From Escherichia phage vB_EcoS_MM01, in the sequence record MK373793.1: a stretch of 43,157 nt of DNA; one strand, written 5' to 3'. Of this stretch, positions 1,049 through 43,117 are shown in pieces. The notes beneath the pieces are model-generated. The model worked only from the letters and a program-made list of their open reading frames with translations, was not told the DNA's origin and searched no databases. Position numbers and translations under genes: made by a program. Within the stretch, counting starts at the first letter, position 1. Every line of letters starts with the position of its first letter.

Positions 1049-1332
1049 TGAGTTTCAACTATGAGGAATATTTAAAAGAGGTTCATGACTCAATGACTGA
1101 AGAGCAGAAGGCCAATATCGCCAGAATCAAAAGAACCATTGATGAGAACAACAGAATGCTTGAAGCTGAATATAATAAAGCGAATCCTCGATACAATGGA
1201 AAGACGGTTGATGAGTATATCCTTAGTAATTGCGTTAACAAGCCGTGGCATGAAAAGCACACTCGCGCTGAATGGGAAGAAGCTATGGAGTTGTGGCAGC
1301 TAATGAAGAAGCTAAATAAACTGGTAAAATAG
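1048..1332 (+). CDS. hypothetical protein (94 aa)
   Basis: ORF track; ATGA overlap with upstream gene; stop TAG is part of junction motif A. Confidence 0.5.
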   Translation: MSFNYEEYLKEVHDSMTEEQKANIARIKRTIDENNRMLEAEYNKANPRYNGKTVDEYILSNCVNKPWHEKHTRAEWEEAMELWQLMKKLNKLVK

Positions 1333-1347
1333 CACTTTTTGTTAAAA
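1328..1347 (+). repeat. junction motif A copy (aatagcactttttgttaaaa)
   Basis: contains TAG stop of ORF 1048..1332; hairpin ctccc-agtga-gggag; motif B atcgaaacga at 1379-1388; ATG 1403. Confidence 0.6.
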
Positions 1348-1402
1348 CTCCAGTGAGGGAGTTTGGCATAATAGCTTTATCGAAACGAGAGAGGGATTCA
1401 AG

Positions 1403-1483
1403 ATGTACTATGACGTTATCGCTGTTTGCTTGGTTGCCATTGTTGCTATCGTTGCCATTGTTAAGATTACGGAGAAGAAGTAA
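1403..1483 (+). CDS. small hydrophobic peptide (26 aa, MYYDVIAVCLVAIVAIVAIVKITEKK)
   Basis: short ORF read manually downstream of motif A/B unit; single predicted TM stretch. Confidence 0.3.
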   Translation: MYYDVIAVCLVAIVAIVAIVKITEKK

Positions 1484-1614
1484 TGCATACTCAATTTATG
1501 ATGGATGATGTTTTATATGAAGCAATGCCGTGGCTAATCTGGTCCCTGGGATTTATGATTGTGTATATGATTGCATCATTCGCGGATGACGCTAAAGAGG
1601 AAATTAAAGAATGA
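1483..1614 (+). CDS. small membrane protein (43 aa)
   Basis: read manually; TAATG overlap upstream and ATGA overlap with next gene; hydrophobic core WLIWSLGFMIVYMIA. Confidence 0.3.
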   Translation: MHTQFMMDDVLYEAMPWLIWSLGFMIVYMIASFADDAKEEIKE

Positions 1615-1868
1615 TTACTATCAACCTGTCAGAGAAAGACGCGGCGCTGCTAAAGAGTATCATCATGAAACCAATGTACTCCACACTATCGTTCGAGCAG
1701 ATGCGCGTAGTTAAAGAGGTCGGTGCGCAGATTAATAATCAGCAGTTCGATGTTAGTGACTTCGAGAACTCTCGCCAGTACGAGTCGCTAAGTGTAAACT
1801 CCGCATACCTGCACAATTGGGATAAGGCGACAAAGAATTGGAGATTCGATAAGGAGTTCAATAAATGA
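1611..1868 (+). CDS. hypothetical protein (85 aa)
   Basis: ORF track; translational coupling with neighbours. Confidence 0.5.
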   Translation: MITINLSEKDAALLKSIIMKPMYSTLSFEQMRVVKEVGAQINNQQFDVSDFENSRQYESLSVNSAYLHNWDKATKNWRFDKEFNK

Positions 1869-2290
1869 TTTACATCCACACTTACTACACTGGAAAGTTT
1901 AACAGCGTTAAGCATGTTCGCGTGCATTATAGCTACGAGAGTGCAAAGGCTCAGCATTTGGTTCTAGGTGGTGACATTAAGCAATACGGAGAGATAGCGC
2001 GAATTGGTAAACAATTACCTGATCAATCAGGCATAATTGCTACATTTACAACGAGATTGGGCGGAGAAATGAAAATCAAAATTACAAACGTGAACCACAG
2101 GCCAGAAGAAGGCTTAATGACACTAGAGGAATGTGGATTTAAGGTTGGTGACGTTGTTGACGTTGTTGACGTTGCTGGGGTTTACATGGATGGTCGAGTT
2201 TACATTCTTGTGACTCGTGCAAACGATGGGGTATCTGTTGGCAGCGCGGTTGTTTTGGGTGAGAATGAGTACGAGGTGATTGAAGAATGA
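1865..2290 (+). CDS. hypothetical protein (141 aa)
   Basis: ORF track; contains coding tandem repeat VGDVVDVVDV (gacgttgtt x3). Confidence 0.5.
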   Translation: MIYIHTYYTGKFNSVKHVRVHYSYESAKAQHLVLGGDIKQYGEIARIGKQLPDQSGIIATFTTRLGGEMKIKITNVNHRPEEGLMTLEECGFKVGDVVDVVDVAGVYMDGRVYILVTRANDGVSVGSAVVLGENEYEVIEE

Positions 2291-2466
2291 AATTCAGACA
2301 AAGTGACCCAAAGCTACAGGCCAATCACTTTGATGGCTACGCAACATTCATCATTGCACAGGCTTGCGGAATGCGCGAAGACCCACAGGTTCACACCATT
2401 CACATGACCGAAGAGCAGGCTAGAGAGTTAGCTTACGAAATTCTAGAGCAATTGAATCGAATTTAA
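2287..2466 (+). CDS. hypothetical protein (59 aa)
   Basis: read manually; ATGA overlap with upstream stop. Confidence 0.4.
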   Translation: MKFRQSDPKLQANHFDGYATFIIAQACGMREDPQVHTIHMTEEQARELAYEILEQLNRI

Positions 2467-2515
2467 CGCGTCTAGAACGAATTCTAACGAACGATAATTT
2501 AAGCGGGGTGATTTC

Positions 2516-2677
2516 ATGATTAAGATCATTTATACTGGTGACGATGATGATTTGGCGCTAATTCGGTTTGGCGATGTGCTATTCGCAAAGTTGAATGAGG
2601 ATGGAGATTGCTACATTGTAAAAAACAAGAATGGCGAGGATATTTACCTTTCAAGAGACGAGGTCATGATTTGCTAA
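2516..2677 (+). CDS. hypothetical protein (53 aa)
   Basis: read manually; purine-rich RBS upstream; TAATG overlap with next gene. Confidence 0.35.
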   Translation: MIKIIYTGDDDDLALIRFGDVLFAKLNEDGDCYIVKNKNGEDIYLSRDEVMIC

Positions 2678-2814
2678 TGGATAACTACGAATTACCAAGC
2701 CAGTGGGCTAAGAGAATGATGGATGGCGCTAAGACTGGCGAAGAGGCTATGCAGTACTTTGAACTGATGAATCTATGGAAGGAGCGGGAAGATAAAAATA
2801 GCACGAATAGCTAA
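2677..2814 (+). CDS. hypothetical protein (45 aa; C-terminus NSTNS encoded by motif A)
   Basis: internal ATG of track ORF 2608..2814 (track start is TTG); coupled to upstream stop. Confidence 0.4.
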   Translation: MDNYELPSQWAKRMMDGAKTGEEAMQYFELMNLWKEREDKNSTNS

Positions 2815-2816
2815 AA
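2797..2816 (+). repeat. junction motif A copy (aatagcacgaatagctaaaa)
   Basis: member of 13-copy family AATAGCAC-N4-TTG(C/T)TAAA; motif-B-like tatcaaaacaacgagag follows before ATG 2872. Confidence 0.6.
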
Positions 2817-2871
2817 GCATTCGCCAGGGACGGCATATAATTACCTTATCAAAACAACGAGAGATTGAGAG

Positions 2872-3776: not shown

Positions 3777-4283
3777 ATGAGCAAAGCAGCATTAAAGCTA
3801 GGCGAGGGCAACTTCAAGACTCTGTATAACAAGAAGTACGGCGATATCGCAATGGTGGCAGTTAACCGCAAATATACGCCTGAAGAGGTGTTTGATTTCG
3901 CGGTGAGATACTTTACCTGGGCTGAGGGTGAATCAATTAAAGCAATTGAGACGGCGGCATTCCAGGGTGTGGTTAGTGAAAACCTTATCCATAAGCCTAG
4001 AGTTTTTACCTTAACAGGCCTGGCTTTGTTTATGGGCGTCAAGATAGGTAGCTTTGCTCGTTGGCGTTCTGAGCCAGGTTACTCTGACGTCATGGAGTTT
4101 ATTGACAACGTAATATACGAGCAGAAGTATCAGCTAGGCGTTTCTGGTATCATCAACTCCACGATTGTTGGCAAGGAACTTGGAATTGATAAGCCGCAGG
4201 AGATCACCATTAGCAACAACTCCACTGCCAACGACGTTGATAGCATGAAGGCAGCGCTGGAATCTGTGATTGGTAAGCTGTAA
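3777..4283 (+). CDS. terS: terminase small subunit (putative)
   Basis: 168-aa ORF immediately upstream of terL with strong AGGAGG RBS; assignment by position. Confidence 0.5.
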   Translation: MSKAALKLGEGNFKTLYNKKYGDIAMVAVNRKYTPEEVFDFAVRYFTWAEGESIKAIETAAFQGVVSENLIHKPRVFTLTGLALFMGVKIGSFARWRSEPGYSDVMEFIDNVIYEQKYQLGVSGIINSTIVGKELGIDKPQEITISNNSTANDVDSMKAALESVIGKL

Positions 4284-4392
4284 AAATATGAGGGTATAAC
4301 ATGATTATTTGCACATTTCTTGGTTGGTGGATGATGACCAAGAACCTTAACGCAGGTCTGCTATATATAGCCATTAATCTGGGGGTTTCTCA

Positions 4393-5958
4393 ATGTCTTT
4401 AGTATGGGAAGAAATGACCATTCAGGAGAAGATGGCGGTTAAGGCTATATCAGAACACAGCTTCGAGGGATTCCTTAGGTGCTGGTTCCAGATTACTCAA
4501 GGCGAGCGGTATATCCCGAACTGGCATCACAAGTATTTGTGCAGAATCATTGACGAGATTATCGCTGGAGAGCGCAAGGACACCATTATCAATATAGCAC
4601 CTGGTAGCGGGAAGACAGAGATCGCATCAATACATTTCCCAGCCTACTCAATGGTTAAATTGAAGAAGGTAAGGAACCTTAACATCTCCTTTGCCGACTC
4701 CCTGGTTAAGCGTAACTCTAAGCGAGTTCGAGACCTTATCAAGTCGGCAGAATTTCAGGCGCTATGGCCTTGCAAGTTTGGAACATGCAAAGATGATGAA
4801 CTTCAGGTTCTTGATGAGAGTGGCAAGGTTAGATTTGAGTCAATATCAAAGGCGGCTGGGGGTCAGATTACTGGTGCGCGTGGTGGCTATATAACTGAAA
4901 AATATAGCGGTGCTGTGCTATTAGATGATTTTGACAAACCCGCAGATATGCTTTCACCAGTTTATCGAGCCAATAATCACGTAATGCTGAAAAACACCAT
5001 TCGCTCTCGTCGCGCTAGCTCAGTAAAAGGTAAGGCCACGCCAATCATTTCTATACAGCAGCGCCTGCACGTTAATGACTCAACATGGTTCATGATGGAA
5101 GGAGGGATGGGTATCGACTTTGATTTGATTAAGATACCTGCATTGGTAACTGAGGATTACATCGACACGCTACCTGACTGGATTAAAGAGCAATTTGCAG
5201 AGGATGTACTAAGCAGCGAATACATTGAGCGAGATGGAGTAAAGTACTACAGCTACTTTCCTAAAAAGGAGTCAGTAAGCGACCTGGTTGCGATGTGGGA
5301 TAGTGACTCTTACACTTTCCTTAGTCAATATCAGCAGGAACCTGTAGCGCTAGGTGGCAACCTCATTAACGTGGATTGGTTCCAGCGCATTAGCGACACG
5401 TTCAGACCTCCTGCTAAGTACGATTATCGATTCATAACTTGCGATACAGCTATGACTACAAAAAGTTATAGTGACTTCTCTGTACTTCAGCTGTGGGGAT
5501 ATAAAGATGCTAAGATTTACCTTATAGACCAGCGTCGCGGCAAATGGGAAGCACCAGAGTTGGAGGCAGAACTACTGGACTTCGAGAAGAAATCAAGGGC
5601 AACCAGTCAATCAGATGGCATCCTTCGAAAGATTATCGTCGAGAAGAAAGCATCTGGTATCGGCCTAATTCAATCAGCGAGTCGAGTTATGCGCACACCA
5701 GTAGAGCCTTACACACCGGATAAAGACAAGTTGACAAGGGTAATGAGTGCGCTGCCACAGATTAAGGCTGGTAACGTAGTTCTTCCTGAGTCTGCGACAT
5801 GGTTAAGCGGATTACTTACTGAGATTGCGGCATTTACCGCTGACGATTCTCATAAACATGATGACCAAATTGACTGTCTAACAATGGCGGTAAACCTGGT
5901 ACTTAACATTGTGGACGATCCCAAGTCTCGACTAATGCGCATAGCGGGAATTAAATAG
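4393..5958 (+). CDS. terL: terminase large subunit
   Basis: 521 aa; Walker A PGSGKTE, Walker-B-like VLLDDFD, C-terminal nuclease-like acidic residues. Confidence 0.85.
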   Translation: MSLVWEEMTIQEKMAVKAISEHSFEGFLRCWFQITQGERYIPNWHHKYLCRIIDEIIAGERKDTIINIAPGSGKTEIASIHFPAYSMVKLKKVRNLNISFADSLVKRNSKRVRDLIKSAEFQALWPCKFGTCKDDELQVLDESGKVRFESISKAAGGQITGARGGYITEKYSGAVLLDDFDKPADMLSPVYRANNHVMLKNTIRSRRASSVKGKATPIISIQQRLHVNDSTWFMMEGGMGIDFDLIKIPALVTEDYIDTLPDWIKEQFAEDVLSSEYIERDGVKYYSYFPKKESVSDLVAMWDSDSYTFLSQYQQEPVALGGNLINVDWFQRISDTFRPPAKYDYRFITCDTAMTTKSYSDFSVLQLWGYKDAKIYLIDQRRGKWEAPELEAELLDFEKKSRATSQSDGILRKIIVEKKASGIGLIQSASRVMRTPVEPYTPDKDKLTRVMSALPQIKAGNVVLPESATWLSGLLTEIAAFTADDSHKHDDQIDCLTMAVNLVLNIVDDPKSRLMRIAGIK

Positions 5959-5970
5959 CCGTGATAAACT

Positions 5971-5992
5971 AGCCCCTACATGGGGCTTTTTA
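5971..5992 (+). terminator. rho-independent terminator
   Basis: agcccc-taca-tggggc hairpin then T run. Confidence 0.5.
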
Positions 5993-6005
5993 TTGGAGAA
6001 ATGCA

Positions 6006-7274
6006 ATGGTAAAAACAGACAGCTACGCCAATATCTTTCTTGGCGGTAGTGATGGCAGTGAGATTTACGGGAGTTTAAATAACCAGACGCCTTCAATGCT
6101 GGCTTCTCTTTATGCTGATAATGCGCTGGTTCGTCGAATTATTGACACAATCCCAGAAACAGCACTAGCGGCAGGATTCCACATTGATGGTATTGATGAC
6201 GAGCCTGCATTCTGGTCGCGCTGGGATGGTTTGGAAATGACGAAGAACATTAACGATGCATGGTCATGGGCCAGATTGTTTGGTGGTTCCGCAATTGTTG
6301 CTATCGTTAAGGACAATAGAGCGCTAACAAGTCCGGTCAGAGAAGGTGCCGAACTTGAAACGGTTCGCGTTTACGACCGCACGCAAGTAAAAGTACAGAC
6401 CCGCGAAGAGAATCCACGCAACCCACGTTTTGGCAAGCCACTGACCTATCGCATTACCACTAACGAAAGCGATATGTTCTATGACGTTCATTATAGCCGG
6501 ATTCACATCATCGATGGCGAGAGAGTGCCTAACGCAATGCGCCGACAAAATGATGGGTGGGGCCGCAGTGTGCTTTCCAGTGATATTCTCGACTCGATTA
6601 AGGATTACACCAACTGCGAGCGACTTGCTACACAATTACTGAGACGCAAGCAGCAGGCTGTGTGGAAGGCGAAGGGTCTGGCTGAGTTGTGCGATGATAG
6701 CGAAGGGTTTGGTGCTGCAAGATTGAGACTGGCACAGGTTGACAACAATAGCGGCGTAGGTCAAGCAATTGGTATTGATGCCGAATCTGAAGAGTACAGC
6801 GTTCTTAACTCAGATATTGGCGGTATTGATGCGTTCCTGGATAAGAAGTTTGACAGAATCGTTGCGCTGAGCGGCATTCATGAAATCATCCTGAAGAACA
6901 AGAACGTCGGTGGCGTATCATCTAGCCAGAACACAGCGCTTGAGACATTCCATAAGTTGATTGACCGTAAGCGCAATTCTGAACTACTGCCTATTCTTGA
7001 GTTCCTAATCCCGTTCATCGTAAACGCGGAAGAGTGGTCAGTTGAGTTTAACCCGTTGGCACAGGAATCAAGTAAGGATAAAGCAGAAGTTCTGGAAAAG
7101 AACGTAAACAGCATTGCCGCACTAATTGCAGCCGGAGCTATGGATACGAACGAAGCACGTGACACACTACGCACTATCGCACCAGAGATTAAGATTGGTG
7201 ATAATGATATTCAGGCCGAGGAATCGGAGTTAATTACAGAGACAGAGGTTGTTAATGAAGAAATTGCGATATGA
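6006..7274 (+). CDS. portal protein (putative)
   Basis: 422-aa ORF directly after terL; canonical gene order. Confidence 0.65.
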   Translation: MVKTDSYANIFLGGSDGSEIYGSLNNQTPSMLASLYADNALVRRIIDTIPETALAAGFHIDGIDDEPAFWSRWDGLEMTKNINDAWSWARLFGGSAIVAIVKDNRALTSPVREGAELETVRVYDRTQVKVQTREENPRNPRFGKPLTYRITTNESDMFYDVHYSRIHIIDGERVPNAMRRQNDGWGRSVLSSDILDSIKDYTNCERLATQLLRRKQQAVWKAKGLAELCDDSEGFGAARLRLAQVDNNSGVGQAIGIDAESEEYSVLNSDIGGIDAFLDKKFDRIVALSGIHEIILKNKNVGGVSSSQNTALETFHKLIDRKRNSELLPILEFLIPFIVNAEEWSVEFNPLAQESSKDKAEVLEKNVNSIAALIAAGAMDTNEARDTLRTIAPEIKIGDNDIQAEESELITETEVVNEEIAI

Positions 7275-8364
7275 CAGTGCGAAGGTGAAAGCCAGATTTG
7301 ATGAAAACGGCTTTCTGGTTGATACCCCGATTGTTGCGCGTGTCGGGGTGCAAACCTACTACCTTCCAGACGGCACAGAACGAAGAGAATTTAGACCAGC
7401 CTCAGAGGTATTTAAACCTGATTCTCTAGCAAGTTATCAGGGCAAGCCAATTACCTTAGGTCATGTGTTTGTTAACTCTGAGAATGCCAAAGAGGTAGTT
7501 GTTGGTGCGGTATCTGGGTCAGCTATGCGTGAGGACTCGAATGTCATTGTTCCTCTAACTGTTTACGACAAGGAATCCATCGAGAAGGCGAAATCCGGTA
7601 TTGCTGGTGAGTTATCTGTAGGCTACTCAACTGTTGATATTGATTCGAAGGGGTGGGGTAGCAATGAAACTGGCGAGTATAAGTTGGACGGAGAATACCA
7701 ATCACAGGACGAAATCCCTTCTGATTGGGTTAGATTCGACGCTCTGCAAACTGAAATCAAAGTAAATCACGTCGCACTTGTCTATCAAGGCCGCGCGGGA
7801 GTAGCCAAACTTAATTTTGACGCTCAGCAGGAAAACCCGTATACTGACAGCGTTGATTCTATTAAAGAGGACGTAAAAGAAATGGTTAAGATTAAACTCG
7901 ACGGCGCTCAGGAGTTTGAAATTGCTCCCGAAGTCGCCGCTCACATTGAAGCAGTTAAAGCTGACTCCGCAAAAGAAAAGGCAAAAGCTGATGCACTGGA
8001 AGCTGAGCGTGATGCGCTTAAAGCTAAAGTTGATGCAATGCCATCAGAAATCGAGAAAGCAGTTGCTAAGGCGAAAGCTGACGCAGACGCGCTCGCAGCT
8101 TTGGTTGCTGTTGCTGCTGAAGCTGGCGTTAAAGCTGATGGTCTGGATGCTAAAGGCATTAAAGTAGCTTACGTTAAAGAAGTCTCTGGCCTGGATGTTT
8201 CTGAGAAATCTGACGCGTATATTGATGCAGCGTTCGACATTGCCAAAGAATCTGATAAAATGGCTGAAGTTCGCAAGGCTACCGCAGCCTCTGATAAATC
8301 TGACAGCAAAGACGAAGTTAAGGTTTTGAACCCGCGCGCTCGTCTGGCTAAAATTAAAAAATAA
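7255..8364 (+). CDS. head scaffolding / prohead maturation protein
   Basis: internal ATG of track ORF 7249 (track start TTG); C-terminal third is Ala/Lys/Glu-rich coiled-coil typical of scaffolds. Confidence 0.5.
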   Translation: MKKLRYDSAKVKARFDENGFLVDTPIVARVGVQTYYLPDGTERREFRPASEVFKPDSLASYQGKPITLGHVFVNSENAKEVVVGAVSGSAMREDSNVIVPLTVYDKESIEKAKSGIAGELSVGYSTVDIDSKGWGSNETGEYKLDGEYQSQDEIPSDWVRFDALQTEIKVNHVALVYQGRAGVAKLNFDAQQENPYTDSVDSIKEDVKEMVKIKLDGAQEFEIAPEVAAHIEAVKADSAKEKAKADALEAERDALKAKVDAMPSEIEKAVAKAKADADALAALVAVAAEAGVKADGLDAKGIKVAYVKEVSGLDVSEKSDAYIDAAFDIAKESDKMAEVRKATAASDKSDSKDEVKVLNPRARLAKIKK

Positions 8365-8374
8365 GGAGTCCTAA

Positions 8375-8872
8375 ATGGCAATTCGTTCCGTAGCTCTGGC
8401 AGGCATGGTAGCTGATACTTCCCTGTATAATATTGATGGTGCTTGCGTAGTTGGTGGCTCTGCTGCAATTCCGGTTGGCACAGTAGTAACCGTTAGCCCT
8501 GATCCATTAATCGATGGTCACAAGGTTGTTATTGCTGGCGCATCCGCTACTCTCCCTGCTTATGGTGTGGTTGTTAAATCTCATTATGAAACTCCTGACG
8601 GTACCGCTAAAACTCAGGAAGCAGTTAACGTAATGACAAACGGCAGAATCTGGGCAAGAACAAACCTTTCTGCAAAGCCAACTTTCGGTAGCGCTGTTTT
8701 CGTCAATAGTTCTGGTCTTATTGTAGCTGGCCCAGCAAGTGACACCGTTTTCGATACTGGCTTTACCTTCGCTGGTGGTTTTGCTACTGCATACACCGCT
8801 AGTGCAAACCCAATCAAGCAAGATGAGTCTGTTGATGGCAACATCGTAGAGATTCAGGTTAAGCAGAAATAA
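8375..8872 (+). CDS. head-associated structural protein (decoration-like, putative)
   Basis: 165-aa Gly/Ala/Val-rich ORF between scaffold and capsid genes; function by position only. Confidence 0.35.
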   Translation: MAIRSVALAGMVADTSLYNIDGACVVGGSAAIPVGTVVTVSPDPLIDGHKVVIAGASATLPAYGVVVKSHYETPDGTAKTQEAVNVMTNGRIWARTNLSAKPTFGSAVFVNSSGLIVAGPASDTVFDTGFTFAGGFATAYTASANPIKQDESVDGNIVEIQVKQK

Positions 8873-8875
8873 AAA

Positions 8876-8896
8876 CAGGCCCTTAGGGGCCTTTTT
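8876..8896 (+). terminator. rho-independent terminator
   Basis: aggccc-ttag-gggcct hairpin plus T run. Confidence 0.6.
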
Positions 8897-9471: not shown

Positions 9472-9476
9472 AATCA

Positions 9477-14819: not shown

Positions 14820-14839
14820 CATAGCACTTTTTGCTAAAG
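14820..14839 (+). repeat. junction motif A copy (catagcactttttgctaaag)
   Basis: motif A followed by motif B atcgaaacga at 14871-14880 and ATG 14898. Confidence 0.6.
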
Positions 14840-14897
14840 CATAAATCAAAACATACTGTATAGTTACTTCATCGAAACGAAATAAAGGAATTAAGAA

Positions 14898-26616: not shown

Positions 26617-26681
26617 TTTTGAATCCTTAGTAAGTATTTTTCGTTTCGATGGAGTAATAGTACCGCATCCTTGCGGATTGT

Positions 26682-26701
26682 CTTTAGCAATTCGTGCTAT
26701 T
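26682..26701 (-). repeat. junction motif A copy (aatagcacgaattgctaaag on minus strand)
   Basis: supplies stop codon of upstream methyltransferase-like ORF; motif B at 26641-26650. Confidence 0.6.
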
Positions 26702-27359: not shown

Positions 27360-27866
27360 ATGCGCGAGGTTCTTTGCAACATTCCGGCTTATGATAGTAT
27401 TGTTAACAGCGAAACGGCTCAGAAGGAGTTATCAATCTTTGGTGAGATTCTCGGTGTTGGTGTAAAGATTCGAATTGACCACGTTGACGTTGTTGATGGA
27501 GTTGTTCATATCACAGATTATAAGACCACAGCAGACGCAAGCCCTGAAGGGTTCGGTAAATCAGCTTTCTCTCATGGATACTTGGCTAAAATGGCATTGC
27601 AGCGCGATCTGTTTGTAAAAGCATTTAACGAGAAGAGGAAGGTAGTCGTTGGTCTTATGGCACAAGAAAAAACTGAACCTTACTTACCCATGAAGTACAC
27701 GCTAACAGATGATCAGCTTCGTATTGGCAGATTGCAGTATCTTGAAGCCCTAGCTACATACAAGAAATGCAAGGAGCTTGATATATGGCCTGGTTACTCA
27801 AATGGGATTACAGAGCAAGAGCTAGTTATCCCTGATTGGGCAACTAAGCAGTATAAAGAAATTTAA
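27360..27866 (+). CDS. PD-(D/E)xK exonuclease (lambda Exo/YqaJ-like), possibly N-terminally truncated
   Basis: catalytic-core-like IDHVDVVDG...ITDYKT near N-terminus; frame opens only at 27312. Confidence 0.55.
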   Translation: MREVLCNIPAYDSIVNSETAQKELSIFGEILGVGVKIRIDHVDVVDGVVHITDYKTTADASPEGFGKSAFSHGYLAKMALQRDLFVKAFNEKRKVVVGLMAQEKTEPYLPMKYTLTDDQLRIGRLQYLEALATYKKCKELDIWPGYSNGITEQELVIPDWATKQYKEI

Positions 27867-27885
27867 ATAGCACGAATTGCTAAAA
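27866..27885 (+). repeat. junction motif A copy (aatagcacgaattgctaaaa)
   Basis: starts in the TAA stop of the exonuclease; motif-B variant catcaacaacgaacgagg precedes Erf ATG. Confidence 0.6.
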
Positions 27886-27939
27886 CAAAAAGGGATAGCT
27901 GAGGTATAGTTATCCCATCAACAACGAACGAGGTTAAAG

Positions 27940-30625: not shown

Positions 30626-30644
30626 AATAGCACATTTTGTTAAG
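30626..30644 (+). repeat. junction motif A copy, orphan (aatagcacattttgttaag)
   Basis: plus-oriented between two minus-strand genes; no motif B or plus-strand gene downstream. Confidence 0.5.
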
Positions 30645-30667
30645 TTGCATTGTATCATCTTTCAGGT

Positions 30668-30690
30668 ATAAAAAAACCTCCCGAAGGAGG
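30668..30690 (-). terminator. rho-independent terminator of minus-strand replication operon
   Basis: cctcc-cgaa-ggagg hairpin; A7 on plus strand equals T7 on minus. Confidence 0.6.
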
Positions 30691-31620
30691 TTAGCTATTC
30701 AATAAATCACTTGCCTTATATATCCGCTTCCTTACCCCTGACTTGAATGAGTGCTCATCATTAGGGATTACCACATCAATATTACGATCATCAGCAACGG
30801 CGAGTAAATCGAGAGAATGACGAGCGCATGCAATACGTAACTTGGAGTCTTTGAGCGCGTAAGCAACCATTTCCATGTTGTAACTGGAGTGGCAAACAAG
30901 TACACAGCGGTTCCCAGTAGCAATGTGAACGCGATAGCCGTCAATGAAATTATCGACAAGATAAGCGTACTCATCATCCTTAAAGGAACCAATAACAGCC
31001 ACAGACTGACGAGTATAATCTTTTGCAGCATAACTAACATCTCCTTCCTCATTGATAAACATTACATTACACATTTCTTCTGATATGCCGTCACTATAAG
31101 CCATAAAGCACGGGGCAGCATGAATTAATTCGCCGGACTTCGTCTTGCCAACATCAAACCCAAACTCGCTATAAATACCCTCGTATGTACTGAGTGGGGT
31201 TAACTCTACTCTTTCTGTCCTTTCCATTATCTCTAAGCATCTTTCATGGTCAATCTGGGCGCCCATTTTGTATGGTGATGTCCTTGATGCTCTTTTGTTT
31301 GCTTTTGCAACAATCTCAACAGGAACCAGATTTAACCAGTCACCAAGCGTATCTATTGTTTCGCTATAACTCATTCCTGAGCACTTCATGACCCAACCAA
31401 CACCAGAATCATTGCCGCACTGGTTGCATATTGCTGCACCGTTGCCTTTTTCCTGACCTAGCTCATCCGTGAATCGAAACCTATCACGACCTCCGCAGTT
31501 TGGGCATGGACCATGCTTCTTGCTAAGATTTTCTCTGGTCCATCCTAAATGAGACAGGTATAACTCACCCCACATCCCTTTCATTTTAGCTATCACTTCA
31601 TTTTTATCATGATGATTCAT
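30691..31620 (-). CDS. DNA primase (zinc-ribbon + TOPRIM-like, putative)
   Basis: CPNCGG...C..C zinc-binding cluster near N-terminus; ATG 31620 with GGAGG RBS inside track ORF. Confidence 0.5.
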   Translation of the reverse strand: MNHHDKNEVIAKMKGMWGELYLSHLGWTRENLSKKHGPCPNCGGRDRFRFTDELGQEKGNGAAICNQCGNDSGVGWVMKCSGMSYSETIDTLGDWLNLVPVEIVAKANKRASRTSPYKMGAQIDHERCLEIMERTERVELTPLSTYEGIYSEFGFDVGKTKSGELIHAAPCFMAYSDGISEEMCNVMFINEEGDVSYAAKDYTRQSVAVIGSFKDDEYAYLVDNFIDGYRVHIATGNRCVLVCHSSYNMEMVAYALKDSKLRIACARHSLDLLAVADDRNIDVVIPNDEHSFKSGVRKRIYKASDLLNS

Positions 31621-31675
31621 ATACACCTCCATAAACAATAAAGGCACTATACATAATGCACAGTGCCATTGCTTA

Positions 31676-32182
31676 TCAAATCGTGCTGTTTTGCTCTGAC
31701 TCTCTCTTTTTCTTATTCTCTTCCTTAATCTTGCGCCATGATCTAGCAGGTGGTTTTTTTGCTAAATCCTCCTTCTTAACAACTCTAAGCATTTCTCGAC
31801 GGTCGCAACGCAATGTTAGTGGCTTACCGTTGCTATCAAATCGCAGATCAGGACGAATGAAGCTAGCTCTATATCCTTCGCCTGTACGCTTGTACTTTCC
31901 GTGCAGCTTCTGCGCGCCTTTCGCTGAGATCATTCCGCGCTTACACCACTCAGAAACTACTGCATGAGTCACATTGGCGGCTTTTGCTAGCTTCGATTTA
32001 CCGCCGTAGAAGTTAAGAACTATCTCAAGCCTTGCGCGTAAACTTGCTCGCACTTCATCCTTCAAAGTGTAGTAGCCATAAGGTCGACTACGTTCTTTCT
32101 TATCTTCGCCTCGCTGGGTTCCGTTATTTCCATTTAATGTACGCTTGTCCACTTCACCAGTTGATTCCGCGATTCTCGTCAT
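31676..32182 (-). CDS. HTH DNA-binding protein (Cro/YdaS-like, putative regulator)
   Basis: GGKSKLAKAANVTHAVVSEWCKRGMIS helix-turn-helix-like segment; basic termini. Confidence 0.45.
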   Translation of the reverse strand: MTRIAESTGEVDKRTLNGNNGTQRGEDKKERSRPYGYYTLKDEVRASLRARLEIVLNFYGGKSKLAKAANVTHAVVSEWCKRGMISAKGAQKLHGKYKRTGEGYRASFIRPDLRFDSNGKPLTLRCDRREMLRVVKKEDLAKKPPARSWRKIKEENKKKRESEQNSTI

Positions 32183-32193: not shown

Positions 32194-32213
32194 AATAGCA
32201 CTTTTTGTTAAAA
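32194..32213 (+). repeat. junction motif A copy (aatagcactttttgttaaaa)
   Basis: in divergent intergenic region 12 nt from HTH gene start and about 70 nt upstream of helicase ATG. Confidence 0.6.
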
Positions 32214-32282
32214 GTCGTTTTGATTTAGTGTTAGTATTGTACCCAACAAAACGCTACAACACAAATTAATAGGGCTTAACAA

Positions 32283-34278: not shown

Positions 34279-34698
34279 GTGAAGATTACAGATAAAGAAG
34301 ATTACATTGAGTTTTACCCAGGCGCTGTAAAGTCATGCCCAAAGGAGGATGACGAACAGATCTTTTGCTCTGATTGGGTTAAGTATCATTATCCGCAGAT
34401 TGTTTACTGGCATACAGTTAATGAAGGTATGAAATCAATTGGGTCAGCAAGGAAGGATGCAGCCAAGGGTTTGCTTAAGGGTGTATCAGATTGCTTATTC
34501 CTGATACCCGAATCGCTGCGTGGCAAGTACCCTTTCGGAGCTATAGAGTTAAAGAGAGCTGGCAAGACCCAGGCTAGTCCAGTCAGCGATGAACAAAGGT
34601 CTTTCCTTAAAAGCGTAAGAGAATCAGGCGGCTTCGCAGGTGTCGCATACGGGCGCGAAGGTTTTCTTGCAGCATTCAAAGAAATGATTTCAAAATAG
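34279..34698 (+). CDS. VRR-NUC domain nuclease (putative)
   Basis: 139 aa; PD-(D/E)xK-like DCLFL...GAIELK; GTG start coupled to helicase stop. Confidence 0.5.
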   Translation: MKITDKEDYIEFYPGAVKSCPKEDDEQIFCSDWVKYHYPQIVYWHTVNEGMKSIGSARKDAAKGLLKGVSDCLFLIPESLRGKYPFGAIELKRAGKTQASPVSDEQRSFLKSVRESGGFAGVAYGREGFLAAFKEMISK

Positions 34699-34713
34699 CA
34701 CTAATTGCTAAAG
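34694..34713 (+). repeat. junction motif A copy (aatagcactaattgctaaag)
   Basis: TAG stop of VRR-NUC gene lies within motif; motif B at 34745-34754; ATG 34777. Confidence 0.6.
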
Positions 34714-34776
34714 ACGTTTCGATGGGTTGGTGTATTATCTATTCATCGAAACGAAACACACAAAGAGAGAAAGAAA

Positions 34777-35891: not shown

Positions 35892-37028
35892 ATGGCAACT
35901 GCAAAAATTACCAACGAAGAGCTGCGCGAAGAGCTGGCGAACGGTATGACTAACAAAGCAATCGCAGAGAAGTACGGTATGAATATTCGCAATGTTGAGT
36001 TGCGTCGTAGTAAATTGGCAAAGAGTGGAGAATTGCACGGAAACCCAGGCATCAAAAAGCTAGTTCCTGACGGTTATATGGTTAAGGGAACATCAACGAT
36101 GATTGATGCCGAAGGTAACGAAAAGATTCGCTGGGTTAAAACATCCGTAGATAATGAGCGCCTTGAGGTTTTAATGGAGCAGGCTCGAGAGGCATTTTGC
36201 TCAGAGTTGCCAAAGGCTATTCCATCTGAATCACCGAATGTTAACTTTGATGATAACACACTTGCGATGTATCCAGTTTTTGATTTACACATTGGAGCAA
36301 TGGCACACAAACACGAGTGCGGCGAAAACTACGACACAGCAACAGCCGAGAAAGTAATGAATGGATTCTTTGATTACGCTGTTGATAAGGCGCCAAACTC
36401 TAAGAATGCTGTATTGGTATTGGGTGGCGATTTCCTGCATTACGATTCACTTGAGGCAAAAACACCAGCTTCAGGGCATATCTTAGATAGCGACAGTCGT
36501 TATGCAAAAATTGTTTATGTTGCAATCCGGTCAGTACGTCGTGCAATTTCTCGAATGATGGGGAAGCACCAGAATATCGACATTAAAGTTATAAGCGGAA
36601 ACCATGATGAAGCGGGAATGGTTTGGTTGCGTGCGGCGCTGGCTGCATTTTATGAAGATGAGCCGCGTGTAAGCGTTGACGTTAGCCCTGCCGCTATGAT
36701 GATGACCAGCTTTGGAAGCACGCTTATTGGTTATACTCATGGGCACCAGATGCGTAAAGCTGATACAAGACTGACTGTTATGGCAACTGATTTCCGTAAG
36801 TTGTTTGGGCAAAGTGAGTATGTTTATACACATAGTGGCCATTGGCACTCACAGAAAATTACAGAGACGAATCTTGGTATTGATGAAGTTCACGGCCAGC
36901 TAGGTAGCCCAGATGCGTACTCGGCAAATGGCGGCTGGCGCTCTCAGCGTCAAGCGGCAGTAATCGTTTATCATAAGGAATTTGGCGAGGTTGGTCGCTT
37001 CATCTGTCGCCCAAAAATGTTTAGCTAA
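35892..37028 (+). CDS. calcineurin-like metallophosphoesterase with N-terminal HTH-like domain
   Basis: motifs DLHIG, GGDFLHYD, GNHDE, GHWH in order; N-terminal TNKAIAEKYGMNIRNVELRR resembles an HTH. Confidence 0.65.
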   Translation: MATAKITNEELREELANGMTNKAIAEKYGMNIRNVELRRSKLAKSGELHGNPGIKKLVPDGYMVKGTSTMIDAEGNEKIRWVKTSVDNERLEVLMEQAREAFCSELPKAIPSESPNVNFDDNTLAMYPVFDLHIGAMAHKHECGENYDTATAEKVMNGFFDYAVDKAPNSKNAVLVLGGDFLHYDSLEAKTPASGHILDSDSRYAKIVYVAIRSVRRAISRMMGKHQNIDIKVISGNHDEAGMVWLRAALAAFYEDEPRVSVDVSPAAMMMTSFGSTLIGYTHGHQMRKADTRLTVMATDFRKLFGQSEYVYTHSGHWHSQKITETNLGIDEVHGQLGSPDAYSANGGWRSQRQAAVIVYHKEFGEVGRFICRPKMFS

Positions 37029-37046
37029 TAGCACTTTTTGTTAAAA
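37027..37046 (+). repeat. junction motif A copy (aatagcactttttgttaaaa)
   Basis: begins right after TAA stop; hairpin acccac-gaaa-gtgggt; motif B 37078-37087; ATG 37100. Confidence 0.6.
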
Positions 37047-37099
37047 CGATACCCACGAAAGTGGGTATTATTGTTTTATCGAAACGAGAGGAGATAGAA

Positions 37100-37588
37100 A
37101 TGAATTGGCATGAATTTTTCATATACGATAATGGAACTTTGTTTTGGAAGGTGAAGCCTTCAAGAAGTGTCTTGGTTGGCAGCGTTGCTGGTGGCTTGCA
37201 CTCCGCTGGATATGTTGACTTAAGGTTAAATAAAAAAGCATACTTGTGCCATAGAATTATTTGGGAGATGCATAACGGGATAATACCAGAAGGTATGGAG
37301 ATTGATCATATAAATCACATTAGGGATGACAACAGAATTGAGAATTTGCGACTTGTGAGCAGGCTAGAAAACCATAGAAACAGATCAAAACCAAAAAACA
37401 ATAAAAGCGGATTTACTGGAGTGAGGCAAACGAATAGTGGTAAGTGGACATCTTACATATGCTTAAGGGATGAAAATAACAAGAGGTATATAAAAACATT
37501 ATATTACGGAGATTCTTTTGATTGCGCTGTATCTGCAAGAGTCGAGGCTGTGAAAGGCTTTGGGTTTCATGATAATCACGGGGAGTAA
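37100..37588 (+). CDS. HNH endonuclease with AP2-like DNA-binding domain
   Basis: IDHINHIRDDNRIENLRLVSRLENHRN plus C-terminal GFTGVRQ...GKWTSYI. Confidence 0.65.
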   Translation: MNWHEFFIYDNGTLFWKVKPSRSVLVGSVAGGLHSAGYVDLRLNKKAYLCHRIIWEMHNGIIPEGMEIDHINHIRDDNRIENLRLVSRLENHRNRSKPKNNKSGFTGVRQTNSGKWTSYICLRDENNKRYIKTLYYGDSFDCAVSARVEAVKGFGFHDNHGE

Positions 37589-37594: not shown

Positions 37595-37858
37595 ATGACT
37601 AGAGAGAAATATAACAGAGAAATCATTGGCCTGAATGGCGAAACTGCAATCGTGGACGTATATCGAGTTCTTTCGGCTTTTAATGTGCAAAACCCAATGG
37701 CACAGCACGCAATCAAAAAGCTCCTTTGTGCAGGGTTAAGAGGCCACAAAGACTTAAACGAGGATGTTGATGACATTATCGATTCATTGCAGAAAATGAA
37801 AACCTTCTTAGGTCAGCAGCAAATAGCACAAATTGCTAAAGACAATAATCAAAAGTAA
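37595..37858 (+). CDS. hypothetical protein (87 aa)
   Basis: ORF track; embeds a motif A copy in its C-terminal codons. Confidence 0.45.
   Translation: MTREKYNREIIGLNGETAIVDVYRVLSAFNVQNPMAQHAIKKLLCAGLRGHKDLNEDVDDIIDSLQKMKTFLGQQQIAQIAKDNNQK
37822..37841 (+). repeat. junction motif A copy embedded in coding sequence (aatagcacaaattgctaaag)
   Basis: encodes QIAQIAK; motif B at 37873-37882 precedes next gene. Confidence 0.55.
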
Positions 37859-37892
37859 GTTAATATAACCACATCGAAACGAGATAAACCAA

Positions 37893-39578: not shown

Positions 39579-39641
39579 TTTTGATTTCCTTTTGTGTGTC
39601 TCTTTTCGATGAATTAAGAATAGCAAAAGCCCATGATGGGC

Positions 39642-39661
39642 TTTTAACAAAAAGTGCTATT
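39642..39661 (-). repeat. junction motif A copy (aatagcactttttgttaaaa on minus strand)
   Basis: follows TAA stop of upstream gene; hairpin gcccat-catgggc; motif-B variant catcgaaaaga. Confidence 0.6.
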
Positions 39662-41585: not shown

Positions 41586-41658
41586 CTTAATACTCCATCT
41601 CGTTAATATGCGGGCATTATATAACACCCGCTCAGATATGCTTTAACTTTTAGTGCTG

Positions 41659-42012
41659 TTATAGGTATTGCGCTTCGAATTTGTAAGTTTCGCAGAGCGT
41701 CTTAAATCCAACCTCTTCATCTCGATAAAGCTGCCAGGCATTGCCTTCTTTGTCATAAATGTAACCAGCATTCTGACCCAAACCAGAGTGCATATTCACC
41801 TGGAAGCGCTTACCCTCAGTGAAAACTTTAGCAACGCCGCTCTTGTGATTAACCTTTGTACAATACAGAGTCTTAGTTTTAATGTATTTTCCGCGCTCCG
41901 TAAGGTTCTGCCATTTGCCGTTAACCTTGATTTGTTCCACACCATCTTTAACGCGAGCTTTGAATAAATCATTGTCGCTTGAAATCCAGTTTTTACTAAT
42001 TGTAGTAGTCAT
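41659..42012 (-). CDS. hypothetical protein (117 aa)
   Basis: internal ATG of track ORF 41659..42039, coupled to upstream stop. Confidence 0.45.
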   Translation of the reverse strand: MTTTISKNWISSDNDLFKARVKDGVEQIKVNGKWQNLTERGKYIKTKTLYCTKVNHKSGVAKVFTEGKRFQVNMHSGLGQNAGYIYDKEGNAWQLYRDEEVGFKTLCETYKFEAQYL

Positions 42013-42014
42013 TA

Positions 42015-42176
42015 TTAAGCTCTCTCTTTCGTTTTCCACATGAATTTGTTTGGCGCTGACTTACGCACGATGCGCACAACAATCTTATCTGTCTTTTGTA
42101 CCAAGCCGTAAATCTTACCGTCAAGTGATGCTCGGTACACTGCTTCTTCCATCGCGTCGTAAAAGTTGTCGAACAT
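42015..42176 (-). CDS. hypothetical small protein (53 aa)
   Basis: read manually (MFDNFYDAMEEAVYRASLDGK...); preceded by motif A/B unit. Confidence 0.35.
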   Translation of the reverse strand: MFDNFYDAMEEAVYRASLDGKIYGLVQKTDKIVVRIVRKSAPNKFMWKTKERA

Positions 42177-42227
42177 TTTTTATCTCCCGTCTCGATGAAA
42201 AGATAATACCGCATATCGCATAAATGC

Positions 42228-42247
42228 TTTTAGCAATTCGTGCTATT
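42228..42247 (-). repeat. junction motif A copy (aatagcacgaattgctaaaa on minus strand)
   Basis: encodes C-terminal NSTNC* of upstream small gene; motif-B variant catcgagacg at 42188-42197. Confidence 0.6.
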
Positions 42248-42391
42248 GCGAGCTTTTTCTATCGCCTTAAGCATTATCTCGTGACTTTCTAACAAATCCT
42301 CTCGAAACCAGTCGCCGCAAGGCCAACCTTTCCCGCTATAAGCAGCCACAGTGTCAATGTCGTAATAATTGATTTCTGATGGTAGCAACAT
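42230..42391 (-). CDS. hypothetical small protein (53 aa, C-terminus ARNSTNC)
   Basis: read manually; ends inside motif A. Confidence 0.35.
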   Translation of the reverse strand: MLLPSEINYYDIDTVAAYSGKGWPCGDWFREDLLESHEIMLKAIEKARNSTNC

Positions 42392-42394
42392 ATT

Positions 42395-42595
42395 TTAAAC
42401 CTCTTTGAACTTAGCTATACCAAGAACCACCCAGTTACCCAGGGATTTCACAGCCATAAAGCCGCCACCCTTAAACTTTTCACGATTACCGTAAATTAGC
42501 AGCTCGCCGCTCTTTAACTCTTCGAACTGGTATTCTGCGCCTTTCTCGAAGCAATCATTGTAGCCATTGATAACGCCAGTGCACTTTAGTTTCAT
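42395..42595 (-). CDS. hypothetical protein (66 aa)
   Basis: ORF track; GAGGA RBS. Confidence 0.4.
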   Translation of the reverse strand: MKLKCTGVINGYNDCFEKGAEYQFEELKSGELLIYGNREKFKGGGFMAVKSLGNWVVLGIAKFKEV

Positions 42596-42605
42596 ATCTT
42601 AGTCC

Positions 42606-42782
42606 TCAAAAAGGTATGCAATGATTGCAGCCTTCACCATTGCAACAGAAATCTTCATCCTCTGACTGGAAATGTCTGGCAAGATTAATGTCAATCTTTC
42701 CCTTAACAACCATCTCAGTATAGTCCTCGTTAAGCCCAATCAGAGCGCATTCATGGCGTATCTCTTCTTTATTTATCTTCAT
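42606..42782 (-). CDS. hypothetical Cys-rich small protein (58 aa)
   Basis: read manually; C-terminal CCNGEGCNHC cluster; overlaps upstream gene by 14 nt. Confidence 0.35.
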   Translation of the reverse strand: MKINKEEIRHECALIGLNEDYTEMVVKGKIDINLARHFQSEDEDFCCNGEGCNHCIPF

Positions 42783-43050
42783 GCTTTTTCATCTCGTTAA
42801 TGAAACATTGAACAACAAGCAGCTTGTCTTCGTTATGAATCGGCGACTCTTTAAGGGCATCAATCACCGCGTTAAGAGGAGCTCCGTCATGGAAGAACTC
42901 CTGACCCAGGCTACAGAACTGTGCGCTTGTAGGGTAAGCAATCTGGTTAACAGTGGTCGTCATCGTGTCAGCGCTTGCCTTTGCGAAGCCAATTCCAGAT
43001 GCCAGAATTGCTGCTGCGTATACTGCTGTGATTAACTTTTTCATATCCAT
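42769..43050 (-). CDS. secreted/periplasmic protein with signal peptide
   Basis: N-terminus MKKLITAVYAAAILASGIGFAKA typical Sec signal; preceded by motif A/B unit. Confidence 0.5.
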   Translation of the reverse strand: MDMKKLITAVYAAAILASGIGFAKASADTMTTTVNQIAYPTSAQFCSLGQEFFHDGAPLNAVIDALKESPIHNEDKLLVVQCFINEMKKHEDK

Positions 43051-43097
43051 CTCCTCGTTGTTGATGTGTTAACTATAGCCACATAGATTCAATATGT

Positions 43098-43117
43098 CTT
43101 TAGCAAAAAGTGCTATT
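43098..43117 (-). repeat. junction motif A copy (aatagcactttttgctaaag on minus strand)
   Basis: motif-B variant catcaacaacgaggag lies between it and ATG 43050. Confidence 0.6.

Follow-up and report, generated by a model that had tools for sequence, protein, structure and literature searches.

What are the short, nearly identical sequences that recur at gene junctions throughout the genome of Escherichia phage vB_EcoS_MM01 (MK373793.1), and what reads them? The whole 43,157-nt stretch was analysed and is referred to as the window; all window coordinates refer to it. The phage to which this 43-kb genome belongs is a virulent siphophage from the T1 superfamily, Rtp group (Drexlerviridae): a 14-kb query was 80–87% identical over 55–73% to ACG-M12, ECH1, Rtp and similar records, and the gene order parallels that of Rtp, T1 and TLS. 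We suggest that the recurring sequence, motif A, is probably the upstream element of a compact sigma70-type promoter and that, jointly with this anatomy, it serves as a binding site for activators supplied by the host cell.

In its corrected form motif A reads ATAGCAC-N3-TWGYTAA and has 13 exact matches in the window. With up to two mismatches allowed there are 19 matches, compared to 1.74±1.27 in shuffled sequences (maximum 7), which bears out the enrichment expected from a preliminary description of this DNA. All 13 copies counted in that description are present where it had placed them, and 12 of the 13 follow the orientation of the local genes as it had reported, the exception being 30627(+). 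Its spacer, on the other hand, was too long: the pattern written with N4 finds no match even with two mismatches, the true spacer being N3. Scanning with the consensus brought the strong copies to 14, the additional one lying before the second helicase gene at 41659(-), and revealed two degenerate in-register copies at 1994(+) and 31689(-), the latter before the primase gene. Behind the copies lie, among others, genes that encode a lipoprotein, an Erf recombinase, a helicase and an HNH endonuclease, as well as small proteins, either membrane or secreted.

Once oriented, the 13 copies align without gaps over ~62 bp in a single register: motif A occupies offsets 0–21 and is followed by a variable stretch, a TATAAT-like hexamer at offsets 39–44, ~6 bp, a second motif (motif B) at 50–60, a Shine-Dalgarno (SD) sequence and an ATG. 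The hexamer, at a fixed distance of 18 bp from motif A, had been missed. Motif B, (C)ATCGAAACGA, reads CA(+1)TCGAAACGA in this register and runs into a purine-rich SD and the ATG; it is in register in 12 of the 13 copies, and the start codon lies 16–38 nt past the predicted +1, in agreement with the earlier observation that motif B, an SD and a start codon follow motif A.

The same layout is seen in a comparison set consisting of the Rtp, T1 and TLS genomes and ~120 IMG/VR stretches containing motif A, which together provided 396 instances (331 unique), 276 of them promoter-type, in 121 sequence clusters (families). In the profile of the 331 unique instances, motif A carries ~28 bits and is followed by T36 (47%) and G37 (75%), that is TGn, then by the hexamer (T 63%, A 76%, T 62%, A 50%, A 50%, T 77%, with A-11 and T-7 the strongest) and by C50 (-1, 59%), A51 (+1, 76%) and an A/C-rich stretch (A 48%, C 22%, G 18% and T 12% from +1 to +14). 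Offset 39 is where the best -10-like hexamer is found in 67% of instances (83% if ±1 is allowed); TATAAT with at least five of six positions is found at offset 39 in 52% of instances, compared to at most 9% at any other offset. In the window, the gap between the 20-bp core of motif A and the hexamer is exactly 18 bp in 12 of the 16 copies and 19–20 bp in the remainder. A TGn-TATAAT profile with a CA start is the signature of a TGn-extended -10 sigma70 promoter.

There is no -35 box of the usual kind. The -35 position reads AAAA(C/G)N, no TTGACA-like hexamer lies 16–18 bp upstream of the -10, and canonical sigma70 -35/-10 promoters were not enriched in two scans of the window (29 vs 37 expected and 26 vs 27 expected). 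TTGYTA, within motif A, was rejected as a -35 box, lying as it does 22 bp from the -10 hexamer. The sigma54 promoter consensus is TGGCAC-N5-TTGCW; a promoter of this type was rejected as well, as TAGCAC-N3-TTGC is 2 bp too short, has A for the first G, and is followed 25–38 bp further downstream by a conserved -10 and start, the sigma54 layout having GG and GC exactly 10 bp apart and a start ~12 nt downstream.

We conclude that the elements are very probably sigma70-type promoters of the anatomy described above without a -35 box, ~16 of them in the window. RNA polymerase would recognise the hexamer 18 bp downstream of motif A and start at the A of the CA step 6–7 bp later. Motif B would then be the start site together with the first 10 nt of the mRNA, an A/C-rich and presumably unstructured leader running into the SD and ATG, and each copy would form a complete, compact transcription-unit boundary. 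Of the earlier suggestion of a phage-specific promoter or operator, the promoter part finds support in this anatomy (upstream element, -10, CA start, leader and SD), while the analogy favoured with it, to the start-associated sequences of mycobacteriophages, does not (see below).

Promoters of this kind might also dispense with an activator, motif A acting as an UP-like or DNA-shape enhancer for the C-terminal domain of RNA polymerase's alpha subunit (alpha-CTD) or for sigma alone. The frequent TGn and the A/T-rich centre of the motif would suit such a role, and UP-like enhancers were among those proposed for the related repeats in the passages of the phage TLS re-annotation on which we draw (PMC11447400). 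We nevertheless consider it decidedly improbable, given the invariant G and C positions (GCAC, G13), the lack of likeness to the textbook A-tract UP consensus, the high information content, which is that of a specific protein site, and the distance of TTGCTA from the -10, too great for a -35 box.

What would then take the place of the -35 box is suggested by the marbox. The E. coli marbox/soxbox consensus, AYnGCACnnWnnRYYAAAYn (AYNGCACNNWNNRYYAAAYN), as confirmed in the literature, is a 20-bp asymmetric sequence with recognition elements RE1 (GCAC) and RE2 (YAAA), and is bound by MarA, SoxS and Rob, activators of the AraC family that act as monomers, or in Klebsiella, Salmonella and Enterobacter by RamA. 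Class II promoters are defined by a marbox in forward orientation that overlaps the -35 position. In the cryo-electron microscopy structure of the class II complex of RamA and RNA polymerase at micF, the site lies at ~-41 and is oriented so that GCAC is distal and AAA proximal; the bound monomer contacts sigma region 4 and the alpha-CTD. Motif A reads A-T-A-GCAC-nn-W-TT-G-Y-T-AAA-A-C and agrees with the consensus at 13 of the 14 specified positions in all 14 strong copies (12 of 14 in the weak copies 1994(+) and 31689(-)). A marbox scan of the window found 15 sites with at least 13/14, namely the 14 copies and a site at 21835, compared to 0.83 in shuffled sequences (maximum 3). Position 10, which was left free in the search pattern, is A or T in 99% of the 276 promoter-type instances, as the W of the consensus predicts.

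Orientation and spacing agree with this identity. GCAC...AAA runs in the direction of the downstream gene in 15 of the 16 copies, as class II promoters require, and the box covers the -35 position with its centre at -40.5, counted from +1 positions that are predicted from sequence, and with the same 18-bp gap as in micF. The micF promoter of E. coli K-12 consists of ACAGCACTGAATGTCAAAAC, 18 bp, TAGAAT, 7 bp and the annotated +1, and the phage promoter of ATAGCACGAATTGCTAAAAC, 18 bp, TATAAT, 6 bp and the predicted +1; the E. coli mar marbox, ATGCCACGTTTTGCTAAATC, has TTTTGCTAAA in common with the phage motif. The TAGCA/TGCTA palindrome stressed in the preliminary description appears incidental, as the element is orientation-dependent and fits the asymmetric marbox.

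Scans with the E. coli consensus only gave a similar picture in related phages, with 21 sites of at least 13/14 in T1 (16 with an in-register -10), 21 in TLS (17), 16 in Rtp (13) and 10 in the Klebsiella phage KL, a Webervirus (10). No MarA homologue was found in the window, Rtp, T1 or TLS by tblastn and phmmer with E. coli MarA (noise only, E≥0.6), and the phage helix-turn-helix (HTH) protein discussed below is Cro-like, not AraC-like; an activator supplied by the cell would need no phage homologue. Whether their host is Escherichia, Klebsiella, Salmonella, Citrobacter or another genus, the phages carry the motif in invariant form, which fits a conserved host reader. By every sequence-level criterion that we applied the elements qualify as class II marbox promoters. 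The match in sequence, orientation and spacing to validated E. coli marbox promoters leads us to consider it likely, on balance, that host proteins of the MarA/SoxS/Rob family read motif A. The marbox, lying forward at ~-50 to -31, would replace the missing -35 box, and the bound host activator would contact sigma70 region 4 and the alpha-CTD.

A number of points weigh against such a host reader. Our literature search found no transcript-mapping or binding data for T1-like phages, so that both the transcription start sites and the activator are inferred, and publications found on the marbox together with phage contained no treatment of T1-like promoters. Activation by MarA- or RamA-type proteins is usually modest, ~2–4 fold, which sits oddly with a conservation of ~28 bits. 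MarA and SoxS are scarce in the absence of stress and much of Rob is held inactive; for early genes, relying on them would seem a risk, except where basal Rob is enough or the TGn-extended -10 works independently of an activator. Furthermore, at A0, A3, T11, T12 and A19 the phage motif allows less variation than the marbox consensus does, and Y19 of the consensus is mostly A in the phage copies (as it is in micF). The extra constrained positions make up the TAGCA/TGCTA dyad, so a second or different reader could be conceived. Finally, a conserved phage Cro-like HTH gene adjoins one copy in every genome examined.

One conceivable reader of the dyad is the host protein Lrp, as the E. coli Lrp consensus yAGhAwATTwTdCTr (PMC5554404) fits TAGCA-N5-TGCTA, the copies agreeing with it at 11–13 of its 15 positions. 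The W/A/T core of that consensus is contradicted by the invariant C7 and by the GAA class at the centre, conservation reaches past the 15-mer unevenly, with AAA(A/C) on the 3' side, and orientation dependence together with a fixed class II distance are not features of Lrp sites; the marbox is matched better, at 13/14. We regard binding by Lrp as extremely unlikely.

A stronger competitor is the Cro-like HTH protein itself (Rtp52, T1 gp23, phrog_2856), for which motif A could be an operator, the protein acting at the TAGCA-N5-TGCTA dyad either as a dimeric class II activator or as a repressor for early shut-off; the marbox resemblance would then be coincidence or mimicry. The gene is kept in ~828 phage records, essentially the whole family. 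It is divergent from the copy at 32195, and its own sigma70-like promoter reads through the motif (~+15 to +34), a geometry suited to autoregulation that recurs in TLS (P57 and DR11). The dyad centre at -42 is the classical class II position, and the extra conservation at the marbox N positions (A3, T12) is what completes a 5-bp dyad. In an alignment of 28 homologues, however, the recognition helix (S-x-Q-x-V-x-x-W) is variable, and the invariant parts are the N-terminal arm DKRxxNGNNGxxRG and the C-terminal region. It is hard to reconcile a variable recognition helix with a motif that does not change between phages of many enterobacterial genera. An AlphaFold model of the protein (pLDDT 87) was recognised by Foldseek as a single Cro-type HTH domain, for which a symmetric site would be the expected target; the element, in contrast, depends strictly on orientation and lacks symmetry outside the pentamers. 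An operator for this protein also leaves the 13/14 marbox match, the orientation and the micF-like 18-bp spacing unexplained, and we consider it unlikely, if clearly the foremost of the alternatives to a host activator.

The invariant N-terminal arm of the HTH protein (D12-K-R14-x-x-N17-G-N-N20-G...R24...R31) is predicted to be disordered. Its invariance, set against the variable helix, suggests that the conserved partner is something other than a DNA sequence contacted by the helix, perhaps a host protein or a feature of DNA backbone or shape. Between the two divergent genes, the -10 hexamers of the helicase (+, TAGTAT/TATTGT) and HTH (-, TACAAT) promoters overlap back to back at 32233–32241, an arrangement shared with TLS (P57 and DR11). 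The two divergent promoters thereby resemble a switch in which each excludes the other, and the marbox is placed in the HTH leader. Around 20 T1-like genomes deposited as "Campylobacter phage" (e.g. A110b, A134), with Campylobacter jejuni as host label, are 79% identical to the vB_EcoS_MM01-type coliphage genome and carry the same Cro-like regulator, so that these host labels look doubtful. Pseudoalteromonas phage H40/1, considered as a distant negative control, was dropped; it is not a member of Drexlerviridae and its match is confined to a small Cro-like protein.

Returning to the promoters, no sequence constraint is seen in the 18-bp gap or in the discriminator, and in roughly half of the promoter families a hairpin or terminator is nested there, around the -10. 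Among the 276 promoter-type instances, a perfect stem of at least 6 bp joins offsets 27–34 to 43–50 in 34%, with TGnTATA in the loop, compared to 6.4% (maximum 10.9%) in arm-swap permutations. In type 1 (30 of the 121 families), a GC-rich tetraloop hairpin lies inside the gap, its U-tract being the T-rich -10 plus discriminator; in type 2 (28 of the 121), inverted repeats with many different arm sequences flank the -10. The T1 record annotates several type-1 hairpins as terminators, and a terminator scan of the window flags 37048–37069 and 39646–39624, nested in the gaps of the elements at 37027 (+) and 39600 (-), respectively. Type 1 is further represented by the spacer hairpin of element 1 (AAACTCC/GGAGTTT), and type 2 by the repeat GGGATA/TATCCC (27892–27916) flanking the -10 in front of the Erf-like gene. 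A spacer hairpin CCGCA/TGCGG is present in the element at 26640 (-), GCGGG/CCCGC flanks the -10 at 41599 (-), the helicase promoter contains CGTTTTG/CAAAACG, and at 34694 (+) GTTTCGAT directly past the marbox is complementary to ATCGAAAC in motif B.

The stop codon of the upstream gene is often located in or next to the marbox, which holds both TAG and TAA (the marbox of element 1 contains the TAG of the upstream open reading frame, ORF). Together with the nested hairpins, this explains why motif A had been described as sitting at the 3' end of one gene and being followed by a hairpin or U-rich stretch; such structures between motifs A and B are real. We propose that type-1 hairpins would act as intrinsic terminators and that, with the arms of type 2 flanking the -10, upstream transcripts may end where the next begin. 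At the HTH/primase junction, the -10 of the weak element 31689(-) lies inside the terminator hairpin of the HTH gene (31667–31643), a layout that is the same in T1 (35996-) and TLS (35241-). The predicted start falls in or just past the 3' arm of that terminator, and new transcripts would escape it.

The same hairpins could be read at the RNA level, with motif A as a small boxB-like hairpin (UAGCA-CNNNU-UGYUA) that, together with the next hairpin, forms a signal for processing, antitermination or re-initiation, and motif B as a processed 5' end. C or T at position 14 would keep G-C or G-U pairing, the hairpins with covarying arms end exactly at -1, and motif A is found at the 3' ends of upstream cistrons. 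Such a signal leaves the fixed-register TGnTATAAT and CA start unexplained; the 5-bp A/U-rich stem is marginal, Y14 is a degeneracy that the marbox consensus predicts, and no compensatory double changes are observable, the positions being either invariant or fixed by the search pattern. It is very improbable in our view.

Nor do we find much to recommend a primary role of the copies as recombination linkers for cassette exchange with no regulatory function, which we rate as scarcely credible. The copies do sit at gene boundaries, HNH homing-endonuclease genes bring a copy of their own (37028 in the window, 21392 in Rtp, 41955 in T1, 48196 in TLS), and the existence of two main "alleles" of motif A, TTT-TTGT and GAA-TTGC, would suggest spread by duplication. 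This would not explain the transcription-strict orientation, the in-register -10 and start, or the absence of copies from most late-gene junctions, and a 20-bp homology is at best a by-product substrate. Both the RNA-level and the linker options raised in the preliminary description are unneeded to explain the data; cassette spread, as of HNH genes with their own copy, may be a by-product of the promoters. In the window the HNH gene occupies 37100–37588 (+), and in each of the four genomes this gene has its own marbox-type promoter. The Rtp gene is an insertion in the tail module, and the promoter cassette appears to travel with mobile genes.

The individual elements are collected in Table 1.

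Table 1. Predicted marbox-type elements of the window and the adjoining HTH gene with its promoter (minus-strand sites are written in the direction of transcription)
Feature	Coordinates	Strand	Marbox	-10 hexamer	Predicted +1	Start codon and gene behind it, or remark
Promoter element 1	1328..1389	+	1329-1348 (ATAGCACTTTTTGTTAAAAC)	1367-1372 (tgg-CATAAT)	1379	ATG 1403 (26-aa hydrophobic ORF)
Weak/degenerate element	1993..2054	+	marbox-like 1994-2013 (ATAGCGCGAATTGGTAAACA, 12/14)	2032-2037 (CATAAT)	~2044	ATG 2069
Promoter element	2797..2858	+	2798-2817	2836-2841 (TATAAT)	2848	ATG 2872 (Rtp15/T1 gp59-like)
Late-region promoter element	14820..14881	+	14821-14840	14859-14864 (TATAGT)	14871	ATG 14898 (Rtp34-like lipoprotein)
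Promoter element	26640..26701	-	26700-26681	26662-26657 (TACTAT)	26650	ATG 26616 (34-aa membrane-like ORF)
Promoter element	27866..27927	+	27867-27886 (ATAGCACGAATTGCTAAAAC)	27905-27910 (TATAGT)	27917	ATG 27940 (Erf-like recombinase)
Orphan copy	30626..30692	+	30627-30646 (13/14)	off-register TATAAA		without motif B
Weak element, HTH/primase junction	31629..31690	-	marbox-like 31689-31670 (12/14)	31651-31646 (TATAGT)	~31639	ATG 31620 (primase)
Cro-like HTH gene (Rtp52/T1 gp23/phrog_2856)	31676..32182	-				rival candidate reader of motif A
Helicase promoter element	32194..32258	+	32195-32214	32233-32238 (tgt-TAGTAT) or 32235-32240 (TATTGT)	32245-32248	ATG 32283
HTH-gene sigma70-like promoter (putative function)	32236..32264	-		32241-32236 (TACAAT), 17 bp from TTGTGT 32264-32259
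Promoter element	34694..34755	+	34695-34714	34733-34738 (TATTAT)	34745	ATG 34777 (Rtp55-like)
Promoter element	37027..37088	+	37028-37047	37066-37071 (TATTAT)	37078	ATG 37100 (HNH endonuclease)
Promoter element	37822..37883	+	37823-37842	37861-37866 (TAATAT)	37873	ATG 37893 (small gene before holin/endolysin)
Promoter element	39600..39661	-	39660-39641	39622-39617 (tgc-TATTCT)	39610	ATG 39578
Element absent from the preliminary description	41599..41660	-	41659-41640 (ACAGCACTAAAAGTTAAAGC, 13/14)	41621-41616 (TATAAT)	41609	ATG 41585 (helicase)
Promoter element	42186..42247	-	42246-42227	42208-42203 (TATTAT)	42196	ATG 42176 (Rtp70-like)
Promoter element	43055..43117	-	43116-43097 (19-bp gap)	43077-43072 (TATAGT)	43065	ATG 43050 (93-aa, signal peptide)

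The claim that the motif is absent from the interior of the late structural operon holds for the block from terS to the major tail gene (3777–14788), which has no copies, and fails for the copy at 14821, which sits inside the late region, between the major tail gene and the Rtp34-like lipoprotein gene, and is preceded by a terminator at 14793–14812. The late block itself has no marbox promoter, canonical sigma70 promoters are not enriched in it, and many bidirectional-looking terminators lie between its genes. The Rtp34-like gene (14898–15284, +) has its own promoter inside the tail module. Its product bears a lipoprotein signal plus lipobox (MKVIIAIMATLLLAGC...) and may be a lipoprotein that serves in superinfection exclusion or blocks a receptor.

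The orphan copy 30627(+) lies between the primase terminator and the tail-fibre start, pointing the opposite way to the minus-strand genes for tail fibre and primase around it, and runs into the hairpin of that terminator (30675–30692). Its position is kept in Rtp (33761+) and in T1 (34901+), where there is no -10. It may act on tail-fibre or primase transcripts. A minus-strand TGATACAAT (extended -10) just upstream of the orphan would transcribe through it toward the tail-fibre gene. A further marbox-like site, 21835–21854 (+), matches at 13/14, overlaps the ribosome-binding site or start of the J-like tail gene and has no in-register -10; a variant form is kept in T1 (25020) and TLS (24907), and the site may be a remnant or a non-promoter binding site.

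Gene starts are affected in two places. The ORF list begins the primase at GTG 31647 and the second helicase at GTG 41627, while the layout of promoter and SD favours ATG 31620 and ATG 41585; from the latter start the helicase has 527 aa, the same length as Rtp67. Two short ORFs, 1403–1483 (+) and 26512–26616 (-), of 26 and 34 aa, are hydrophobic, have a good SD and lie directly behind promoters. Neither has an Rtp homologue, and they may encode small membrane peptides.

T1-like phages are classic, abundant and now therapeutic, and their transcription has so far been essentially unexplained, with 3–10 sigma70 promoters found per genome. Marbox-type promoters would supply the missing set, ~16 in the vB_EcoS_MM01 genome, each before a gene. 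A wider proposition, to which we give somewhat less than an even chance, is that T1-like phages (Drexlerviridae, including the Klebsiella Webervirus used in therapy) have wired nearly all of their early and middle transcription to Mar/Sox/Rob/RamA through 10–21 super-consensus class II marboxes per genome. If this is true, phage expression would be boosted in cells stressed by bile, oxidants or drugs and in multidrug-resistant mutants over-expressing MarA, RamA or SoxS, and hundreds of replicating genomes would act as marbox decoys, draining activators from host efflux and porin promoters. Regulation of antibiotic resistance and susceptibility to phage would then be linked by a direct mechanism. 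Should host activators be the readers, the fitness of the phage would hinge on regulators of multidrug resistance, with a bearing on phage-antibiotic combinations and on predicting which clinical isolates make good hosts. The nested terminator-in-promoter design also offers a compact, reusable part for synthetic biology.

How do these elements compare with known systems? Motif A itself has already been published. The 2024 re-annotation of phage TLS, in the passages on which we draw, describes a 21-nt direct repeat (DR), aaATAGCACnnnTTGnTAAAA, at 21 places, oriented with transcription and ~76 nt upstream of start codons, which its authors also report from T1, Rtp and Rogue1 (PMC11447400). According to the same passages, only three sigma70-like promoters were found, and stoperators, enhancer-binding sites and UP elements were suggested as roles for the repeat, its function being left open (PMC11447400). 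The copies described here belong to this Drexlerviridae repeat family: they share with TLS DR1–DR18 the sequence aaATAGCACnnnTTGnTAAAA, the orientation, the ~76-nt start-codon distance (66–88 nt from marbox start to ATG in the window) and the TTT, GAA and AAA subclasses. New here, within the literature searched, is the marbox identity of motif A; these passages of the TLS paper do not report it, or the in-register -10, the CA start and leader, and the nested hairpins (PMC11447400). Promoters of the marbox type explain both the orientation of the repeat and its start-codon distance.

The likeness to mycobacteriophages, suggested earlier, rests on repeated oriented motifs, sometimes paired, at the starts of non-structural genes. 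In cluster K mycobacteriophages the start-associated sequence (SAS) is a 13-bp GGGATAGGAGCCC located 3–7 bp upstream of the start codon, for which a role in translation has been proposed; the extended SAS (ESAS) consists of two imperfect 17-bp inverted repeats with a variable spacer immediately upstream of SAS (PMC3203893). The phage elements fall into neither class. Motif B differs from SAS in both sequence and position, being the predicted +1 region upstream of the SD and 16–38 nt from the ATG, and motif A, unlike ESAS, is a single asymmetric 20-bp site, separated from motif B by the -10 hexamer.

A parallel is also found in activator-dependent promoters that lack a -35 box. Several are known from phages: those of Mu Mor/C, bound at ~-43.5, lambda PRM with cI at -42, and the T4 middle promoters with MotA/AsiA. 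As in the present elements, a good -10 is combined with a specific site which overlaps the -35 position and recruits the sigma70 holoenzyme. The factors there are phage-encoded, in contrast to the situation here, with no phage MarA homologue and a site that is a host regulon box. The T4 MotA box analogy in particular (TGCTT at -30) was rejected, the position being wrong for a motif at -41, and PHROGs and Pfam flagged no MotA or AsiA in the general annotation; Fis, IHF and CRP consensus sequences were also considered and gave no fit by eye. Stoperators block elongation, being sites for a repressor that lie within transcribed regions. Those of mycobacteriophage L5, cited in the TLS paper in the part on which we draw, resemble the phage elements in that many oriented copies of one short site are distributed genome-wide, and differ in that the phage copies hold a fixed promoter-upstream position with a -10 box.

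The nearest counterparts are the micF-type class II promoters of the host, with which the phage elements share an asymmetric 20-bp marbox (13/14), forward and centred at ~-41, and an 18-bp gap to a sigma70 -10. In comparison with chromosomal marboxes, those described here occur in a virulent phage genome, at 14–21 copies per 43–50 kb, and are far nearer to consensus and far more uniform. To the micF-type layout they add a -10 with TGn extension, a conserved leader rich in A and C, and nested terminators, around a putative binding site for the activators of the host.

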